Positions 21,249 to 64,000 of a stretch of 64,000 nt of DNA are shown in pieces (within the stretch, counting starts at the first letter, position 1; every line of letters starts with the position of its first letter). Made by a program: the position numbers and the translations under genes. The stretch comes from Mustelus asterias (Eukaryota). A model generated the notes under the pieces. The model searched no databases and was not told the DNA's origin. It worked only from the letters and a program-made list of their open reading frames with translations. Location of the stretch: the NCBI RefSeq assembly GCF_964213995.1, contig NC_135807.1, forward strand, positions 90,148,001-90,212,000, written 5' to 3'.

Positions 21249-21623
21249 CCCTACCCCCACATATTTTACCCGCTAATCCCTCTAACCTACGCATCCCAGG
21301 ACTCGAAGGGACAATTTTTTTAACTGGCCAATCAACCTAACCCGCACATCTTTGGACTGTGGGAGGAAACCGGAGCACCCGGAGGAAACCCACGCAGACA
21401 CGAAGAGAATGTGCAAACTCCACACAGACAGTGACCCGAGCCGGGAATCGAACCCGGGACCCTGGAGCTGTGAAGCAGCAGTGCTAACCACTGTGCTACC
21501 GTGCCCCCCTAAACATATTTACTTGTTTCTATGTGCTCTCTCAGTTCACCTGTTTTATCTTGAATGCTACATGCATCTGAATATAGTGTTTTTAGTTTTA
21601 TCTTTTTAATTCTTTTTTATGAC

Positions 21624-23725
21624 GTGGAGATGCCAGTGTTGGACTGGGGTGGGCACAGTAAGAAGTCTCACAACACCAGGTTAAAGTCCAACAGGTTTAT
21701 TTGGTAACACAAGCTTTCGGAGCGCTGCTCCTTCATCAGGTGAGTGGAGAATCGGGTTCGCTAACAGGGTATATACAGACACAGACTCAATTACAAGATA
21801 ATGGTTAGAATGTGAGTCTTAACAGGTAATCAAGTCTTTACAGGTACAGACAATGTGAGTGGAGAGAGGGTTAAGCACAGGTTAAAGAGGTGTGAATTAT
21901 CTCAAGCCAGGACAGTTAGTAAGATTTTGCAAACCCAGGCAAGTTGTGGGGGTTACAAATAGTGTGACATGAACCCAAGATCCCGGTTGACGATGTCCTC
22001 ATGTGTGCGGAACTTGGCTATCAGTTTCTGCTCAGTGATTCTGCATTGTCGTGTGTCTTCAAGGCCGCCTTGGAGAATGCTTACCCGAAAATCGGAGGCT
22101 GAATGCTCTTGACTGCTGAAGTGTTCCCCAACAGGAAGGGAACACTCCTGCCTGGTGATTGTCAAGTGGTGTCCAATCATCCGTTGCCATCGTGTCTGCA
22201 CAGTCTCCCCAATGTACCATGCCTCAGGACATCCTTTCCTGCAGCGTATCAGGTAAACAACGTTGGCCGAGTCGCATGAGTATGTATCATGTACCTGGTG
22301 ATGCTGTTCTCATGTGAGATGATAGCATCCATGTCGATGAGCCTGCATGCCTTGCAGAGGTTGCTGTGGCAGGGTTGTGTGGTGTCATGGTTGCTGTTCT
22401 CCTGAAGGCTGGGTAGTTTTGTGCGAACAATGGTCTATTTGAGGTTGCATGGTTGTTTGAAGACAAGTAGTGGGGGTGTGGGGATGACCTTGGCGAGATG
22501 TTTGTCTTCATCGATGACATGTTGAAGGCTCCAAAGAAGATGTCATGGCTTATCCGCTCCAGGGAAATACTGGATGATGAAGGGTACGCTGGTGGCCGTG
22601 TCCTGTGTTTGTCTTCTGAGGAGGTCGGTGTGGTTTTTCACTGTGGTGAGTCAGAACTGTCGATCAATGAGCCGAGCGCCATATTCTGTTCTTATGAGGG
22701 CATCTTTCAGCGTCTGGAGGTGTCTGTTGCGATCCTCCTCATCTGAGCGGATCCTGTGTATACGGAGGGCTTGTCCGTAGGAGATTTCTTCTTTAACGTG
22801 TTTAGGGTGGAAGCTGGAGAAGTGGAGCATCGTGAGGTTATCCGTGGGCTTGCGGTATAGTGAAGTGCTGAGGTGACCGTCCTTGATGGAGATGCGTGTG
22901 TCCAAGAATGCAACCGATTCTGAAGAGTAGTCCATGGTGAATCTGATGGTGGGATGGAACTTGTTGATGTCATCATGTAGTTGTTTCCGTGAGTCCAAAA
23001 GAAGAAAATGTCATCGATGTATCTAGTGTATAGCGTCGGTTGAATGTTCTATGCGGTGAATAGCCCTTATTCGAATCTGTGCATGAAGACGTTGGCATAT
23101 TGAGGTGTGAATTTGGTCCCCATGGCAGTCCCATGTGTCTGGATATTGAAGGTGAATACGTTGTAGTCCAGGATGAAGCAGGTGAGTTGTAGAATTGCAT
23201 CTGGAGATTGGCAGTTGTCGGTCTTGAGCATTGAGGCAGTTGCAGCAATGTCGTTGTCGTGGGGGATGCTGGTATAGAGTGCCGAGACATCCATTGTGAT
23301 GAGGAGTATTCCTGGTTTGACTGCTTCATGGGTGCTGGGTTTCTGCAGGAAGTCCATAGTGTTGTGACAGGAGCTAGGTGTTCTTTGTACAATGGGTTTC
23401 AGGATGCCCTCGACATAGCCAGAGACGTTCTCACACAGGGTCCCATTGTCTGATACGATAGGATGGCCGGATGTATCTTCGGGAGGCAGTAGAGATCTCC
23501 AACGTGGGAAGTACGTGGGATGAGAGCATGGAGGGCGCTCTGAAGGTCTGGATCAAAGGTCTTGATCAGTCTGTTGAGTTGGCAGGTGTGTTCTTCATTA
23601 GATCTGCGGGTAACTGTAATGTTCCTGGTTGTTCAGTTGTCGGTAAACTTCTTTGCAGTAATCTGTTCAGTATGACGGTGGCCCTTCCTTTGTCTGCTGG
23701 TTTGATGACAATGTTACGACAACCG
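21624..23725 (-). mobile_element. Penelope-like element (RT + GIY-YIG endonuclease), frameshifted and 5'-truncated, with 3' pLTR
   Basis: MDVSALYTSIPH, GTAMGTKF.PQYANVFM, RYIDDIF, FLDTRISI, LYRKPTD. NVVYLIRC..C..AWYIGET at ~22270-22200. Confidence 0.92.
21708..21742 (-). ncRNA. Minimal type I hammerhead ribozyme motif in the PLE pLTR
   Basis: CAC-CUGAUGA-A-GGAGC AGC GCUCC-GAAA-GCUU-GUG: conserved core, 5-bp stem II, palindromic stem III, CAC/GUG stem I. Confidence 0.75.
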
Positions 23726-28842: not shown

Positions 28843-29315
28843 TGCCTCTACCGCTCTGGCAGTGCTTTTCAGGCATTCAGCTTTGGGTAAGCGTTCTCCA
28901 AGGCGGCCTTCACAGCACACGACAGCGCAGAGTCGCTGAGCAGAAACTGATAGCCAAGTTCCGCACACATGAGGACGGCCTCAACCAGGATCTTGGGTTC
29001 ATGTCACACTATCGGTACCATCCCACAGCTTGCCTCCTGGATTTGCAGAATCTCACTGGCTGTCCTGTCTGGAGACAATACACATTTCTTTATCCCTCCA
29101 CTCACATTGTCTGTATCTTTAAGACTTGATTAGCTGTAAAGATTTGCATTCTAATCAGTATTCTGTAACTTGATTTTGTGTCTCTGTGTGCCTTGTTTGT
29201 GAGCAGATATCCACTCCATCTGACGAAGAAGCAGGGCTCCGAAAGCTAATGGCATTTGCTACCAAATAAACCTGTATTTGACTTTAACCTGGTGTTGTTA
29301 AAACTCTTACAGTGC
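28843..29315 (+). mobile_element. Penelope-like element 3' fragment with pLTR
   Basis: VSVLQGGL..TRQRRVAEQKLIAKFRTHEDGLN peptide, homologous to 21953-22100. Confidence 0.88.
29216..29252 (+). ncRNA. Minimal hammerhead ribozyme motif
   Basis: CCAU-CUGACGA-A-GAAGC AGG GCUCC-GAAA-GCUA-AUGG. Stem I is CCAU/AUGG. One mismatch in stem II. Confidence 0.65.
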
Positions 29316-30888
29316 TTTTCAGTTCAGTTCCCAGAGGGTCTCCCTCATCGTGGTGGTCTGCTCTACCCTCCACAACCCTGCATACCAGTGGGGTGACATT
29401 CTGGAGGAGGAGGACCATTCGTATTCCTCTGGTGAGGAGGTGGACCAGGAGGGAGCAGAGGAAAAGCCCTAAGAGGACCCAGAGGACGGAGAACAGGAGG
29501 TGGAAAGTGTCCAGTATGCCAGGAATAACAGAGAGGCCCTGTATGCTACCAGATACTCCGATTAAGTGGCTTGGCACTTCCACCTTCCCTCCTCTGAAGG
29601 TCACACTGACATTACACCAGGGTGATGGGCCTAGGTGGTTATGTCAGTGAATGAATTGTCAAGACAGGAGGGTAGCTCACTCATTATAACCAAAGTTTCA
29701 TGCTCCTATCTGAGACCACAACCAGATTAGCCATAATGACAACTTGTTAAGAGTCAAGCTGTGATGCTACTCTGGTGCTACCTAAGTCTGATGCCTGCCT
29801 GGCTTCTGACTGCTCACAGACCCCTGGGCTCATGTCTGAGTGAGGGTCAGAGGCACCATCGTTTGGCCCAATGCTTCATGGAGGGGAGGGGCGGGGGGGG
29901 GAGGTGGTGCGAGGCCTAGGATTCACTGAATGATGAGATTATCACTCCAGAATGTCTGTCTCCATGAGTCTCAATGGCCCTCACTGTTGGCATTGCTTTG
30001 AGGGCCAAGAGGAGTTTCTGAGTACAGATGGGAAGATAAAATCCCTGTGAGAAATGGGACCAAGACAGAGGAGTTTCACCTTGAGATGCATATTCGTTAA
30101 TGCTGAATATTTACAGTGCCAGTTACCCTATCCAGAACAATGATGTTTGCCTTTTCCCGTGCCCACTCGGTGCTCCTCAAGCTTCTTAATCTTGCGTGGC
30201 CTAGCGCGACATCCAGGTGACACCCCAGGATGCACATCAGAGGTGGAGGTGACCTGCTGTCTTCCGCATCCCATGACTTGTGATGCCCTCGGCAGGCATC
30301 CTCTGGAGGGTCAAGACCTGGAGGGCACTGCAAATTCCACAAATCCAATTACTAGTGGTCCCAGCACCGAGTTCTGGGTTCCTCACTCATAATAACTGAA
30401 GTTTTATGCTCCTATATAGACTACAACCAGATCAACCGTAATCTTATTCAATGGTGTAGCAGGTTCAAAGGGTCAAATGACCTACTGCTACTCCTAAATC
30501 CTAAATCCTATAACCTCGATAAGGGGTATTTCTTGTTCTCAACCAATTCTTTATTCATTTTCATGGTTCACACTGAATCCCTACAACTGTGAACTAACTC
30601 CTCCAAGTTAAGGCCATAAAGAATGTTATTATTACATGTTAGTCACATAAAAATAATACACCATTAAAAAGAGAGAAGGTTCAGGAAATAAGTAGTAAGA
30701 TGATGAACACAACCATGCAAAGGAAGTACAGGGGAGTGCAATTCTAATTTATCTTACAACACTTTACTAAACTTAGTCATGCTAAAGGACTCCAGGAATT
30801 ATCTAAAAGGAAGGAGGGAGATTAAGATGTGATCACACTAGCAATTCTATACACCTGCTTGCATATTTACAGACACTTCAGGAACACT

Positions 30889-33240: not shown

Positions 33241-35190
33241 TCAAGACACATTGTCACTCGATTTCATGACCACAGCTCCTAGCTCAGATACTGACACTTA
33301 GAGGATAGGACAGAGGTGGGAACCTGCACATGGTAAGGGACCTGGCTGCAGTGCTCTACTACCAGAGTGGGGGATGAAGGGAACACAGCTGCTGGCTTGC
33401 TGCAGTGCGAGGTTGTAAACTATTCTGCTGCTGAGGAGTCAAATGATGGCTTTGATGGGCCAGGCTACAGGAGAAAGCTGTTGAATAAATATAACCAAAT
33501 GTTCAGTATGCTGGAAAAACTGTCAGAAAACCAGCATTCAATATCAAGGTGCATGGATAAGTCTCACACCAACTTGGCAAAGAACTTTCAAATGGATGAC
33601 CCCCACTAGCATCACATCAGTGGAGCCAACCATGATGAAGTACCGCATAGCTGTGTCTCAGTTTCAGGTTGGACTTTAACCTGGTGTTGTGAGACTCCTT
33701 ACTGTGCTCAGTTTCTATTACAACACAAGCAGCATCCACTCAACTATGGTAATAGAAGCTCTGACCCTTGGCAACTTATCTGTGCATGCTAATATGCAAA
33801 GGGTCTTCCTGAGCATCACAGCACTCATTCAAACTTTTCTTCAATAGTTCTGCTAGCTAAAGATCCTCTACAGAAATAGCCTCCCGCTGACAGTTTTATC
33901 TCCTCCTCTGCATTACTTTGCCTTTACGTTTCTCGCAGTTTGCCCTGTTCTGCATGACCATAGCTCATTCTCATGGTCAAGCTTAATGCCAGGAGGAACA
34001 TTTACTATTTCACTCATACTGGAAGCAACAGCCCTGCGCACATGCCTATAATCACTGTAAAAGTATTTCCATATCAGTCAGATCACTCCATTGAAGCTTT
34101 TAACAAGGATAGAAAAGCATAACAATGTATAGAATTGCAGCAACAAGCAAAAGAAATAATTAGGTCACTAAACTCATAAAAAGTTGATGATCCCCTAAAA
34201 TAGCACTGATGGTGGGTCCCCTTCATGGTGTTAGGTTAAGTGCTGAAGAACAGAGCTCCAAATTGATAACTCAGATGTCAAATCAATGTTGTACAACATG
34301 ATCTGCCTGTTCCATATAACCGTTGACAGATGTAAGACGCATGCTTACTTCATATTAGAGGTCTGTGTATGTGCTGCAGATGTCGTTTCGGATGCTGAAG
34401 AGACGTTGTAGCACCCAAAATTACCAAGTGAAATTTCACCCTCCTACTTCAGAGAATTTCTGGAATAAATGTAAATAGAACGTTTGTGAAATTTGGACCA
34501 AGTATTCCAGTAAGTCTCTCGATGTGTTTCAAAAGTCCCTTCAAAACCTTCGGCAGCAAGTGAACAATAAAATGTGATATTCCTTTCAGTCATGCTCAAA
34601 ATCTCTGCCTTCACTTAATTATCCCGAATCAGCTAGTCACTGTGAAGAGAAAGTGCTCATTCGGCCAAGCACTAGGCACCCAAATGCTATGCAGCATCCT
34701 TAATGAGCACTGGCACTTTAAGCGGTAATAGTCGCTTCACAATGTTCTAAGCAGCTTTTCCAATAAGAAGCTTCATCTCTTCTTTCAAGATGAAGTTTTG
34801 CATGAAATGTGAGCTAAGCTTGTGTTTCAACATATGACTCAGGCTTGGCCACTTTGGGAGGCTCTTGAGCATCTTAAAGGACACTGGAACTCAAGGAGGT
34901 ACTGTGTGAGCTGGCTAAAAAGGTCTGAAAGCCGGAAAACTGTGTGAACAGCTCAGAGACACTAAGGGGATATGTGTTTTACAAGAACTGGTCAAACTGT
35001 GAATCAGGATGCTATTGATTGATTGGTTTAAAAAGAATTCTGGAAAGCTACGGCATCAGCAATATTGTGACCGAGAGAGCAAGAGTTCACAAAAGCGTGC
35101 TCTGCTGAAGATATTCACACTCATGAAAACCTCAATAGGTGAGAGTGAATTTGTTTTTGATCTAACATTTACACCCGGGAGGAATGTATA

Positions 35191-36402: not shown

Positions 36403-36656
36403 AACAGATAAAAGCAAATGACTGTGGATGCTGGAATCTGAAACAAAAAGAAAAAATGCTGGAAAGTCTCAGCAGGTCTGGCAGCATCTGTAAGACGAGA
36501 AAAGAGCTGACGTTTCGAGCCCAGATGACCCTTTGTCAAAACTTGCTTTCAGCTTTGACAAAGGATCATCTGGACTCGAAACATCAGCTCTTTTCTCTCC
36601 TTCCAGATGCTGCCGGACTTGCTGAGATTTTCCATATTTTCTCTTTTTGCTTCAGG
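36403..36656. mobile_element. Palindromic mini-element, family B (hammerhead-like, PLE-type)
   Basis: ~100-bp imperfect inverted arms, ~13-nt spacer, one-sided extension. AAGTTCAAAT duplicated at 36393-36402 and 36657-36666. Confidence 0.8.
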
Positions 36657-49563: not shown

Positions 49564-49713
49564 ACTGACTGCAAGAACACTTTTCCCAGACTGCTTCACT
49601 GCATTACTGACTGCAAGGGCACTCTTCCCAGACTGCTTCACTGCATTACTGACTGCAAGGGCACTCTTCCCAGACTGCTTCACTGCATTACTGACTGCAA
49701 GGGCACTCTTCCA
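49564..49713. repeat. 42-bp tandem repeat, ~3.6 copies
   Basis: Unit ACTGACTGCAAGGGCACTCTTCCCAGACTGCTTCACTGCATT. Confidence 0.95.
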
Positions 49714-49989
49714 AGAAAGCTTATTGGGTCTCAATGGTCTCATGGTGAACCAATAACCTGTTTTGCAGACATCTGATTTTAAATTACTTTCAATTGACTT
49801 CAATCTCGTCCTTTTGTCTACTTACCTATTATCTCAACCTATCTTGGCGTTTTAATGGTTTCTAATGCATTGAAATTTCATGATTAAGTTGTACTGCACA
49901 GTAGACATTGAAAAGATATTGTAATGAGAATCAGTAATTGGCAAAGTCTTCAGATTTGCTGATCAAGAAAACACAGATATAATTGACCA

Positions 49990-58185: not shown

Positions 58186-59290
58186 CCCATTCTGCAACAA
58201 ATCAAGTTCAATCAAGTCACTTGTGTGCTCTGGCAAATCTGACATGAAGTTATTCACCATAAGTTTGATGATATGGTTTCATTAGAATGGGAGTTAGAAT
58301 GATGTTCTGCACATTTTCTTGATTGAACCATAGACATGGATTTATGTTTCAAAATCTGTTAACTGTTGATATTTTAAGATCATTAATGAGTTAAGAACCG
58401 AGAGAGGGACATTTGCAGATTGCCAATGGCTTGTAAAATTCCAGTGAGAGTATTATTCAAACATTACTCATCAAATTTAACCGTAATCAGATTCAGCACC
58501 GCCTTTCTTTTTTTATACCTTTAATAATTGTGGGACAAATCTGATGCTTACTAAACACACATAAAACTCTTATTGACTCTCATTTGGCGCTAGGTTGGCA
58601 ATGAGGCTTAATTCCAAAATGCTTGGGTTGGCCTGGAGAAGCTAAAATGTGTTGATATCAGCGAAGCACATGATTGGGCTCTAATGTGGGTTTGGCTGTG
58701 ATATCGCAATGGTCAGATATTTCTTATGATACTTCTTATGCAGACTTATGCATGGTGAGTGGCCACATGAGGGAGATATTGGAGTAGTGCTGGTACTCAA
58801 GTTTCGCAACGTCAGTTGCCAAAAGAATGAATTACAAAAATTAGGAGATTAGTGTTTTTACACAGAAGTTTCACAGAACAAGGGAAGCCCTACCACAGCT
58901 GCAGCAGACATCATAAATACTCTCAGATAAAATATGGCTGCAATGCTACCACCTTGTGAAATATTTTCCACTCCTATCTGAATTTACAGTACAACCAAAT
59001 ATATTTTTTAAACAATAATCTAGCAGAAGTGCACGACAAAGTGATTAAGGTGTGGGAGAAAAATCTTCCGTGCTGACCTCCCATTGTGCTAAATTACTAA
59101 GCAGAGATCAAAAGGAGGGAACAAAAATTGAGGGTTACCCCAAGGTCACATTTTTACTAATGGGTGACTATGGTGTGGGATTAAGTGGGATTTATCTGCA
59201 TATTCAGCCTCTCAGCCAGAGGTAGTGCACAGAGAAGAGGGAGAAATGAAATCTGCTTAAGTAATGCTAGTTGAAGCAGCAAGAAAAGCA

Positions 59291-59524
59291 AAAGAGAAAA
59301 CGCTGGAAAATCTCAGCAGGTCTGGCAACATCTGTAAGGAGAGAAAAGAGCTGACGTTTCGAGTCCAGATGACCCTTTGTCAAAGCTTTGACAAAGGATC
59401 ATCTGGACTCGAAACATCAGCTCTTTTCTCTCCTTACAGATGCTGCCACACTGGCTGAGATTTTCCAGCGTTTTCTCCATTGGTTTCAGATTCCAGCATC
59501 CGCAGTAATTTGCTTTTATTTAGT
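59291..59524. mobile_element. Palindromic mini-element, family B, in a CSMD3 intron
   Basis: ~92-bp arms (59294-59385 / 59386-59477) with no spacer, centred on CAAAGCTTTG, plus a one-sided extension. AAGAAAAGCA duplicated at 59281-59290 and 59525-59534. Confidence 0.85.
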
Positions 59525-62280: not shown

Positions 62281-62349
62281 ATTCAAGGCTGCGGGCCAAG
62301 TGCTGGTAAATGGAATTAGGTAGGTAGGTTAGGTGGTCTCATGTATTGA

Positions 62350-62589
62350 CAGTAAGAAGTTTAACAACACCAGGTTAAAGTCCAACAGGTTTATTTGGTA
62401 GCAAAAGCCACACAAGCTTTCGGAGCTCCAAGCCCCTTCTTCAGGTGAGAATTGCCACTCACCTGAAGAAGGGGCTTGGAGCTCCGAAAGCTTGTGTGGC
62501 TTTTGCTATCAAATAAACCTGTTGGACTTTAACCTGGTGTTGTTAAACTTCTTACTGTATTTACCCCAGTCCAACGCCGGCATCTCCAC
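62350..62589. mobile_element. Palindromic mini-element, family A (inverted PLE pLTR ends, hammerhead motif on each strand), in a CSMD3 intron
   Basis: 101-bp arms (62349-62449 / 62458-62558) with 1 mismatch, an 8-nt spacer and a 31-nt extension matching the PLE terminus at 21624. CTCATGTATTGA duplicated at 62338-62349 and 62590-62601. Confidence 0.9.
62460..62496 (+). ncRNA. Minimal hammerhead ribozyme motif (mirror copy on the minus strand at 62411-62447)
   Basis: CAC-CUGAAGA-A-GGGGCU UGG AGCUCC-GAAA-GCUU-GUG. Confidence 0.75.
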
Positions 62590-64000
62590 CTCATGTATTG
62601 ATGCAGACTCGATGGACCGAAGGGCCTCTTCTACACTGTATGATTCTATGTCATCCCTCTGAGATATCTGTGCTTATGTAATCCAGGCCTATTGAGCCTC
62701 TTAGGTTCTAATTACTACACTATTGTGGCTCTGCGTTCAGTTGTTGAATTCATTCCCCAAATATCTGTGATTCTCCATTTCTCTTTCTTCATTTGTAACA
62801 GATCCCAGTTAACCTCAGGCCTCCTATGCAAACACAAGCTGGAGAATAGCCACACATGTGCAGTTTGGGGTTTTTCCTTACGGTCTTTGGGATGGAAAGG
62901 GCTGCATATGCACAGATAATCCGATTTCACATCTTCAGACTGGAAACTGGCCCCGTGCACATGCACAGAAGGAAAATCAAAAGAGTGAAACAGCATGAAA
63001 TTGCAGGTCAGGTCACATTCAGAGGCGTGCCATTGCAGAGAAGATGTCCCATGGAGCAGAAGATGGAGAGGTTCCAAACCAAGAAGGTAGTGTCAAACCA
63101 GAATGTGGGATAGAATGAGGTCCCAGTAGACCCAGCTAAGAGAAAAGGTCAGAGATCAAAAACAGATCCTGTTAAGTAAAGTTGAAGTAAAGAAAGGGCA
63201 AAGATAAAGGATCCAAGTTAAACACAGAGTTGCGAGGGGCACTCTTCAAGTGAAGTGCATTTAAGAGAAGCCCTGAAGATATGCGAAGGCAGCTGAAGGT
63301 TGGTGACTCCATGCCAAAGGCTGGAAGGGCAAAGATATCCTTCTGGAGCATGGTTTTCTGCTTGGCACAGCTGAAGATCTGAAAATGTGCTTGGAGGGTG
63401 AAGTGTGAGAGTACATGGTGATCCAAGGAAAGGAATCGCAGAAGGTCGAGATTGAAATGCGAGAGGCAGATCCCTGTGGAAATCATCTGGGGAATGATGT
63501 CTGAAGAGAATTCTAAGAAAAGTTCTTCAAATGTGGAGATTGGAAAGCTCTGTCAGAAAGAGTCGATTGGCTCACAGGGTGACAAGTATCAGTGGGTTTT
63601 GAAGAAATCCATAGAATCTGCTTTGGTTGCATCTTTTGTTCACTTTGTAATGCAATGTGCCTGAACACAGTTGTTTCACATGTACTGTATACCTACCCTG
63701 AATATTAGAATATCAGATAGTTACTACAAACTATTTATCTGTCTGAATTTGTATGAGTCTGCAAAGATATTGCTAGAGTAAAGGAAATTCACCCTCGCAA
63801 TATCTAAAGAAATTCCTATAAATTTGTTTCGGAACTTACCTCCATGGTTTCTAAAAAGAAAGTTAGGATCTATCAAGTCAGGTTTTACTCTGGGATTGGA
63901 CTACTCCAGTAGTAACATTGGCAGAGATTGCAACACTCTCAAAACACTCTTAAAAGTTATCTTTGACCAATCATTTGGTCATCTGGCCTAACATCACCCT

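Follow-up and report, generated by a model that had tools for sequence, protein, structure and literature searches.

Head-to-head pLTR palindromes of a Penelope-like element in the Mustelus asterias genome as probable products of two target-strand-primed cDNAs

Insertions of Penelope-like elements (PLEs) typically comprise an inverted, 5'-truncated copy together with a tail on one side only, and in the accounts of Arkhipova et al. 2013 (PMC3846280) and Craig et al. 2021 (PMC8557442) this inverted structure is credited to self-priming or to endonuclease resolution; for rotifer Penelopes, the former proposed self-priming on an antisense template. Minimal hammerhead motifs of PLEs were described by Cervera and De la Pena 2014 (PMC4209133), who reported that the PLE monomer assayed did not cleave and that dimers cleaved weakly, and that pairs of Schistosoma hammerheads lie on opposite strands, 100-700 bp apart. 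For the Poseidon element of Anolis carolinensis (PAc), Frangieh et al. 2024 (PMC11167929) reported that the lizard protein cuts and extends both target strands in vitro. Reverse transcription began at two neighbouring internal sites, which delimit the tail, with no difference in start site seen between strands; the initial 172 nt of the ORF were required, and the template was uncleaved RNA. The main text of that paper contains no match to "palindrom", nor does it tie two-strand extension to inverted arms. Also related are the non-LTR retrozymes (Li, Clavereau, Pollet, bioRxiv 10.64898/2026.07.22.740005), described as non-coding and pLTR-derived, with type I hammerheads, and organized as head-to-tail tandems carrying at least two hammerheads on the same strand.

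Within a 64,000-nt stretch of the genome of Mustelus asterias (hereafter the window), we examined a 240-bp palindrome whose two 101-bp arms pair with a single mismatch (G62398/T62509). The palindrome carries a 31-nt extension on one side only, and is flanked by an exact 12-bp duplication, CTCATGTATTGA (Table 1). An apparent 8-nt "spacer" at its centre was found to be right-arm sequence extended by 8 nt rather than separate sequence, and at the centre junction this extension contains one substitution (62454) and shares 2 nt (AG) with the left arm. The start of the left arm, at family position -31, would correspond to the inner RT start site. Arms, tail and duplication were thus recovered exactly as claimed in a first-pass annotation of this DNA, as was a hammerhead core on each strand, read from the sequence. 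Its description of the insertion as recent holds in a relative sense only: a single mismatch over 101 bp is just the median divergence between arms (1.0%) at 110 loci, a set that is itself enriched for young copies.

Table 1. Coordinates of the palindrome, its parts and a related Penelope-like copy (positions in the window).
Feature	Position	Strand	Remarks
Target-site duplication, left copy, 12 bp	62338..62349		Last base (62349) counted in both duplication and left arm
Left arm, inverted pLTR segment	62349..62449	-	Family position -31 to -131; minus-strand minimal hammerhead
Centre junction	62448..62457	+	Right arm runs on to about -141
Minimal type I hammerhead motif	62455..62499	+	Helix I 3-4 bp, CUGAAGA, extra A, 5-bp helix II, GAAA, palindromic AGCU
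Right arm, sense pLTR segment	62458..62558	+	
One-sided tail	62559..62589	+	Between two inferred RT start sites; stops just 5' of the ORF first codon position
Target-site duplication, right copy	62590..62601		Bases 2-6 (TCATG) also fit the element's natural continuation
Penelope-like copy, older, 5'-truncated, broken	21619..23718	-	Sister subfamily, 85% to intact unit

Chimeric reads can create palindromes, and an assembly artefact or a chance inverted duplication was therefore weighed, an explanation that we regard as negligible in view of three observations. First, the exact duplication is matched by an empty site, the flanks being joined with a single duplication copy at L055, a homologous repeat of greater age and the one flank pair that was recovered. 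Second, short-read contigs span both the left junction (runs X15 and X16) and the right junction (X16) with zero differences, these two runs representing one sample that is possibly the assembly's own. Third, like anatomy occurs at hundreds of loci with different flanks. Among the matches listed in short-read contigs of three samples, no joint skipping the palindrome was seen. As in the EN+ PLE insertions of PMC3846280 and PMC8557442, the window element possesses head-to-head inverted pLTR sequence, a tail on one side (30-40 bp in those reports, 31 nt here), a palindrome at the junction and a target-site duplication (9-14 bp there, 12 bp here). Unlike those insertions, its arms are only about 100-140 nt long, with no coding sequence between them.

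Closer examination of the plus-strand hammerhead identified a core (C62463-A62469), an extra A62470, a helix II formed by G62471-C62475 with G62481-C62485, GAAA at 62486-62489, and a predicted cut after U62493. All features of the PLE minimal hammerhead were found, namely the CUGANGA/GAAA/UH core, helices I and II, the extra base, G10.1-C11.1 and a palindromic stem III. In sharing the short helix I, the extra nucleotide before helix II, G10.1-C11.1 and the palindromic 15.2-16.2, the motif presents no essential difference from the PLE hammerheads described in PMC4209133. Across an alignment of 62 family copies, 90.5% of cells pair, compared to 37-47% at one-column slides, and one helix I pair changes from C-G to U-A in 21 rows, with the reservation that rows were picked by their core and that related copies inflate the pairing counts. 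At the gathering score, Rfam gave no match in the window, and the hammerhead fold was absent from the MFE prediction for isolated arms. Judged by its sequence, the motif is a genuine PLE minimal hammerhead. The entire palindrome is predicted to fold as a hairpin of -194 kcal/mol (z = -30), a stability reached by 0/200 shuffles. Since the two hammerheads lie on opposite strands, and a transcript of either strand is predicted to fold into one 101-bp hairpin that locks both motifs, self-cleavage in the palindrome is unlikely, and the hammerheads in such stubs are likely to be passengers.

The arms had also been matched in the first-pass annotation to the pLTR of a Penelope-like element within the window. 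A relative is indeed present there (21619-21747), at an identity of only 82-83%, and the copy to which it belongs is, on this divergence, a relative of the palindrome and not its source; no Pfam match was obtained from the three broken frames in the window. A much closer match (96% over 148 bp) was found between the right arm plus tail and the pLTR of an intact copy elsewhere in the genome (L145). This copy and L146 were two of five loci fetched at length from 20 whose tail continues into the ORF start, and both possess intact 892-aa ORFs. A search of the 892-aa ORF identified Pfam RVT_1 (E=1e-8) but no endonuclease domain. Near the C-terminus a VYLIRC...WYIGET motif pair is visible that may represent a GIY-YIG endonuclease; this putative endonuclease region alone gave no Pfam match, and a PDB sequence search was empty. 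The family thus has intact pLTR-ORF-pLTR copies, and L145 is itself also flanked by an inverted truncated copy in head-to-head orientation. An ORF with RT plus a C-terminal endonuclease (putative here) and a pLTR minimal hammerhead are shared with PAc (PMC11167929), a clade likeness drawn here by architecture only; the PAc ORF begins inside the hammerhead, whereas the first ATG of the intact ORF here lies just beyond the tail. Exact matches to a 26-nt motif of the tail number 67,692 in the 3.68-Gb genome (control, 0). Further fragments of the same Penelope superfamily occur in the window at 28882-29317 (81% to the intact unit) and 33668-33706 (92%). Contigs from other sources (organisms A, B and C, and a fish metagenome; runs X1-X4) also contain relatives of the pLTR at 90% identity or more, indicating that the family is not confined to the Mustelus asterias genome.

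With the 240-bp element as query against the genome, the best 40 of 1712 candidates cover nearly its full length at 92-100% identity. This pattern would suit a self-propagating non-autonomous palindrome, retrozyme- or MITE-like, in which a 240-bp unit is moved in trans. These 40 matches are ranked by query likeness, yet in the 30 that were fetched the centres differ. We also assembled a position-ordered sample, which avoids the bias of ranking by query likeness, from the tail sites on contig C1, taking the first 100 in order (99 recovered, all within one 4.4-Mb stretch). At 70 of these 99 sites an inverted arm starts 15-49 nt inside the tail end, one further site (L121+1752) having been dropped from 71 as its arm was borrowed from a neighbour; the arm is absent within 1.5 kb at the other 29 (25 with none, 3 running off the stretch end, and the 1 dropped row). 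Duplications of at least 9 bp flank 58/70 palindromes, compared to 15/4830 mismatched flank pairs. The usual insertion form of the family is accordingly a palindrome that bears a tail on one side and is flanked by a duplication of 10-14 bp. Such palindromes being the majority class, and their arm ends clustering 5' of the hammerhead, sets the family apart from the EN+ PLEs reported in PMC3846280 and PMC8557442.

The sample also bears on whether the 240-bp unit copies itself. Total palindrome length in this sample extends continuously from 72 to 1478 bp, and 18/70 fall at 200-260 bp, as a self-propagating unit might predict, yet the continuum exhibits no fixed size. Centres were compared at 872 loci that carry a centre pattern near the centre position of the window element, and in the 50 matches listed 32 junction types were counted by eye. 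The commonest, found in 15 of these 50, is the one exact junction that could be read as a mark of common descent, yet it is centred on the GAATTC word intrinsic to the pLTR and sits on five hammerhead-loop variants across six complete loci, one of them the variant of the intact copy L145. The arms match in each locus, and this junction therefore recurs on different source variants and is not inherited. The junction type of the window element is found in only 1 of the 50 matches listed (L002), on a different loop variant. As transcripts of these palindromes would moreover form one long hairpin, with no head-to-tail hammerheads on the same strand, propagation as a unit is highly improbable, and it is likely that each stub is built anew at insertion rather than self-copied.

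Of the two readings that the first-pass annotation had offered, the minimal PLE insertion product therefore stands, and the non-autonomous retrozyme-like family falls: junctions that differ from copy to copy had been named beforehand as evidence against a self-propagating family, and this is what their tabulation revealed. The non-LTR retrozyme was likewise rejected as a class for the element, which is non-coding, pLTR-derived and equipped with a type I hammerhead in common with those of the bioRxiv account, but is arranged head to head with one hammerhead per strand in place of a head-to-tail tandem. Nor does its family have a fixed unit, given the range of lengths and of junction types in the loci listed.

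What, then, generates two mirrored arms and a single tail? Both arms, read from the outside in, are antisense to the RNA, as expected of two first-strand cDNAs. At 30 scorable loci, the starts of left arms fall within -28 to -38 and those of right arms within 0 to +11. Of 15 loci chosen irrespective of a tail, 14 are informative, and in all 14 one side, and one only, bears the tail. A single source type explains both arms at 80/86 loci, compared to 1120/4158 random pairs (27%), which suggests that the two cDNAs usually share one RNA or source locus. That two templates are used as a rule was rejected: a clear gain was found at only 1/86 loci, and a gain of one difference at 5. One locus, L096 (G000:C1:3169500-3172500), combines arms of two subfamilies with an internal piece of the ORF end inside one 13-bp duplication, and could represent a two-template insertion, with gene conversion as the alternative. 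From these end products, the copies as inserted, we consider it probable that the window element is a short pLTR palindrome derived from a Penelope-like element in one event, through the head-to-head joining of two target-strand-primed cDNAs. One target strand would prime at the inner RT start site (-28 to -36) and the other at the outer (0 to +11). Both cDNAs would then extend 5'-ward over one pLTR, usually on the same source RNA or on sibling RNAs, before end joining or a template jump connects the two, in many cases at a short self-complementary word (GAATTC, for example). At the insertion ends, microhomology of at least 1 nt was found at 22/30 loci for each end, an uncontrolled count from the 30/70 loci that were scorable.

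The principal competing explanation is a one-off PLE insertion in which one strand folds back or primes itself to generate the mirror arm, a second, short cDNA possibly giving the tail only. Near-identical arms of one source are expected under this explanation also, as is the correlation of arm lengths, which lie within 15 nt of each other in 36/70 palindromes (11 expected) and in 18/41 outside the length peak (3.6 expected). Either arm may be the longer, however: by more than 15 nt, the tail-less arm exceeds the tailed arm in 21/70 and the tailed arm exceeds the tail-less in 13/70, whereas one fold-back direction yields only one of these outcomes. The version with a second cDNA for the tail would permit a longer tail-less arm. 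Furthermore, a separation of 0-1 nt between arms is common and leaves no space for a loop, the arms of L096 come from two subfamilies, and both target strands are extended in vitro by the lizard protein (PMC11167929). Fold-back is consequently an unlikely origin, if a less remote one than propagation as a unit.

Sequence foreign to the pLTR was observed at several joints. In L053 a SINE 5' piece, adjoining a right arm that consists of the tail only, lies between the arms, and in L043 unrelated DNA (426 nt) that includes short tandem repeats separates the arms; both cases suggest template switching or capture at the joint. In L131 a tail-only right arm is joined to the inverted 5' part of the ORF instead of to pLTR sequence. 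Several centres in the junction listing contain short copies of nearby arm sequence, which we take to resemble the inserts of polymerase-theta templated end joining.

A length preference is also evident. The density of right-arm ends reaches 0.0197 per nt in the bin -120..-140 (29 of 70 at risk), compared to 0.002-0.006 in other bins, a roughly four-fold pile-up located just 5' of the hammerhead core. Hammerhead cleavage was considered as the origin of arm ends and rejected: at the cut site (-96) the rate of right-arm ends is near background level, with 5/83 ending at -90..-99. Because 7/25 non-palindromic copies also end in the -120..-140 zone, the stop appears to be independent of palindromic joining. 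The zone corresponds to the helix I 5' strand and core, which the RT would meet after the helices are unwound, and a structural stall therefore fits less well than an RNA 5' end. In the subfamily of the window element, position -132 is flanked by a TATA-like and an initiator-like word, the former 29 nt before the candidate start; the sister subfamily is without the TATA-like word. A cap-derived extra G at arm ends was sought by eye, a comparison confounded by the G-rich opposite arm. In the Drosophila Penelope element, transcription starts within the pLTR (PMC8557442). For the ~240-bp class of palindromes, the sequence features leave it evenly balanced in our judgement whether both cDNAs would have run off the 5' end of a transcript starting in the pLTR just upstream of the hammerhead.

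In PAc (PMC11167929) two RT start sites bound the tail, as putative start sites do in the present family, and in neither does hammerhead cleavage shape the products. The strict one-sidedness of the tail here would require coupled use of the start sites, unlike the strand-independent starts reported in vitro for the lizard protein. The stub is also without ORF-start sequence past its tail, and is likely to be dead on arrival, since the ORF-start region that the lizard protein needs is absent.

For comparison, L1 twin priming employs the two target strands as primers on the RNA, and its cDNAs, linked at microhomology, form non-overlapping inverted segments. Here, two cDNAs would copy one segment and so produce a palindrome. 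With less than even confidence, we tentatively extend the two-cDNA reading to a scheme of "overlapping twin priming", in which each RT start site would be used once, one per target strand, such that the same RNA leader is copied twice, with the ~240-bp class representing run-off at the mRNA 5' end. If true, overlapping twin priming with run-off would account in a single model for three features: the tail, the inverted pLTR, and the requirement for partial tandems. No published statement of a head-to-head, two-cDNA run-off model was found; the Penelope papers of 2005-2008, or supplements (including Fig. S2 of PMC11167929), may state it.

A single 240-bp element is ordinary in itself, and the contribution of the present analysis is the mechanistic counts taken over its family. 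With tens of thousands of end products, the family provides a resource for investigating how PLEs build inverted repeats and tails. The one-sided tail, the capacity of either arm to be the longer, the single source per event and the stop 5' of the hammerhead supply predictions for an existing in vitro system. In repeat libraries, such stubs may meanwhile be filed as a family of MITEs or retrozymes.

The window also contains members of a second family of palindromes, unrelated to the first (59290-59514 and 36438-36655), with ~100-bp arms and a ~35-nt one-sided tail. Its duplication is 10 bp in the window and at least 9 bp in 17/20 loci, and the best 40 of its 1837 candidates are nearly full length. 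Its variable centres immediately precede, on the 5' side, a hammerhead-like motif whose core is of the U3-A8 type (UUGACAA...GAAA), and it is likely to represent another PLE family. Elsewhere in the window, a tandem repeat with a unit of ~42 bp occupies positions 49564-49722.
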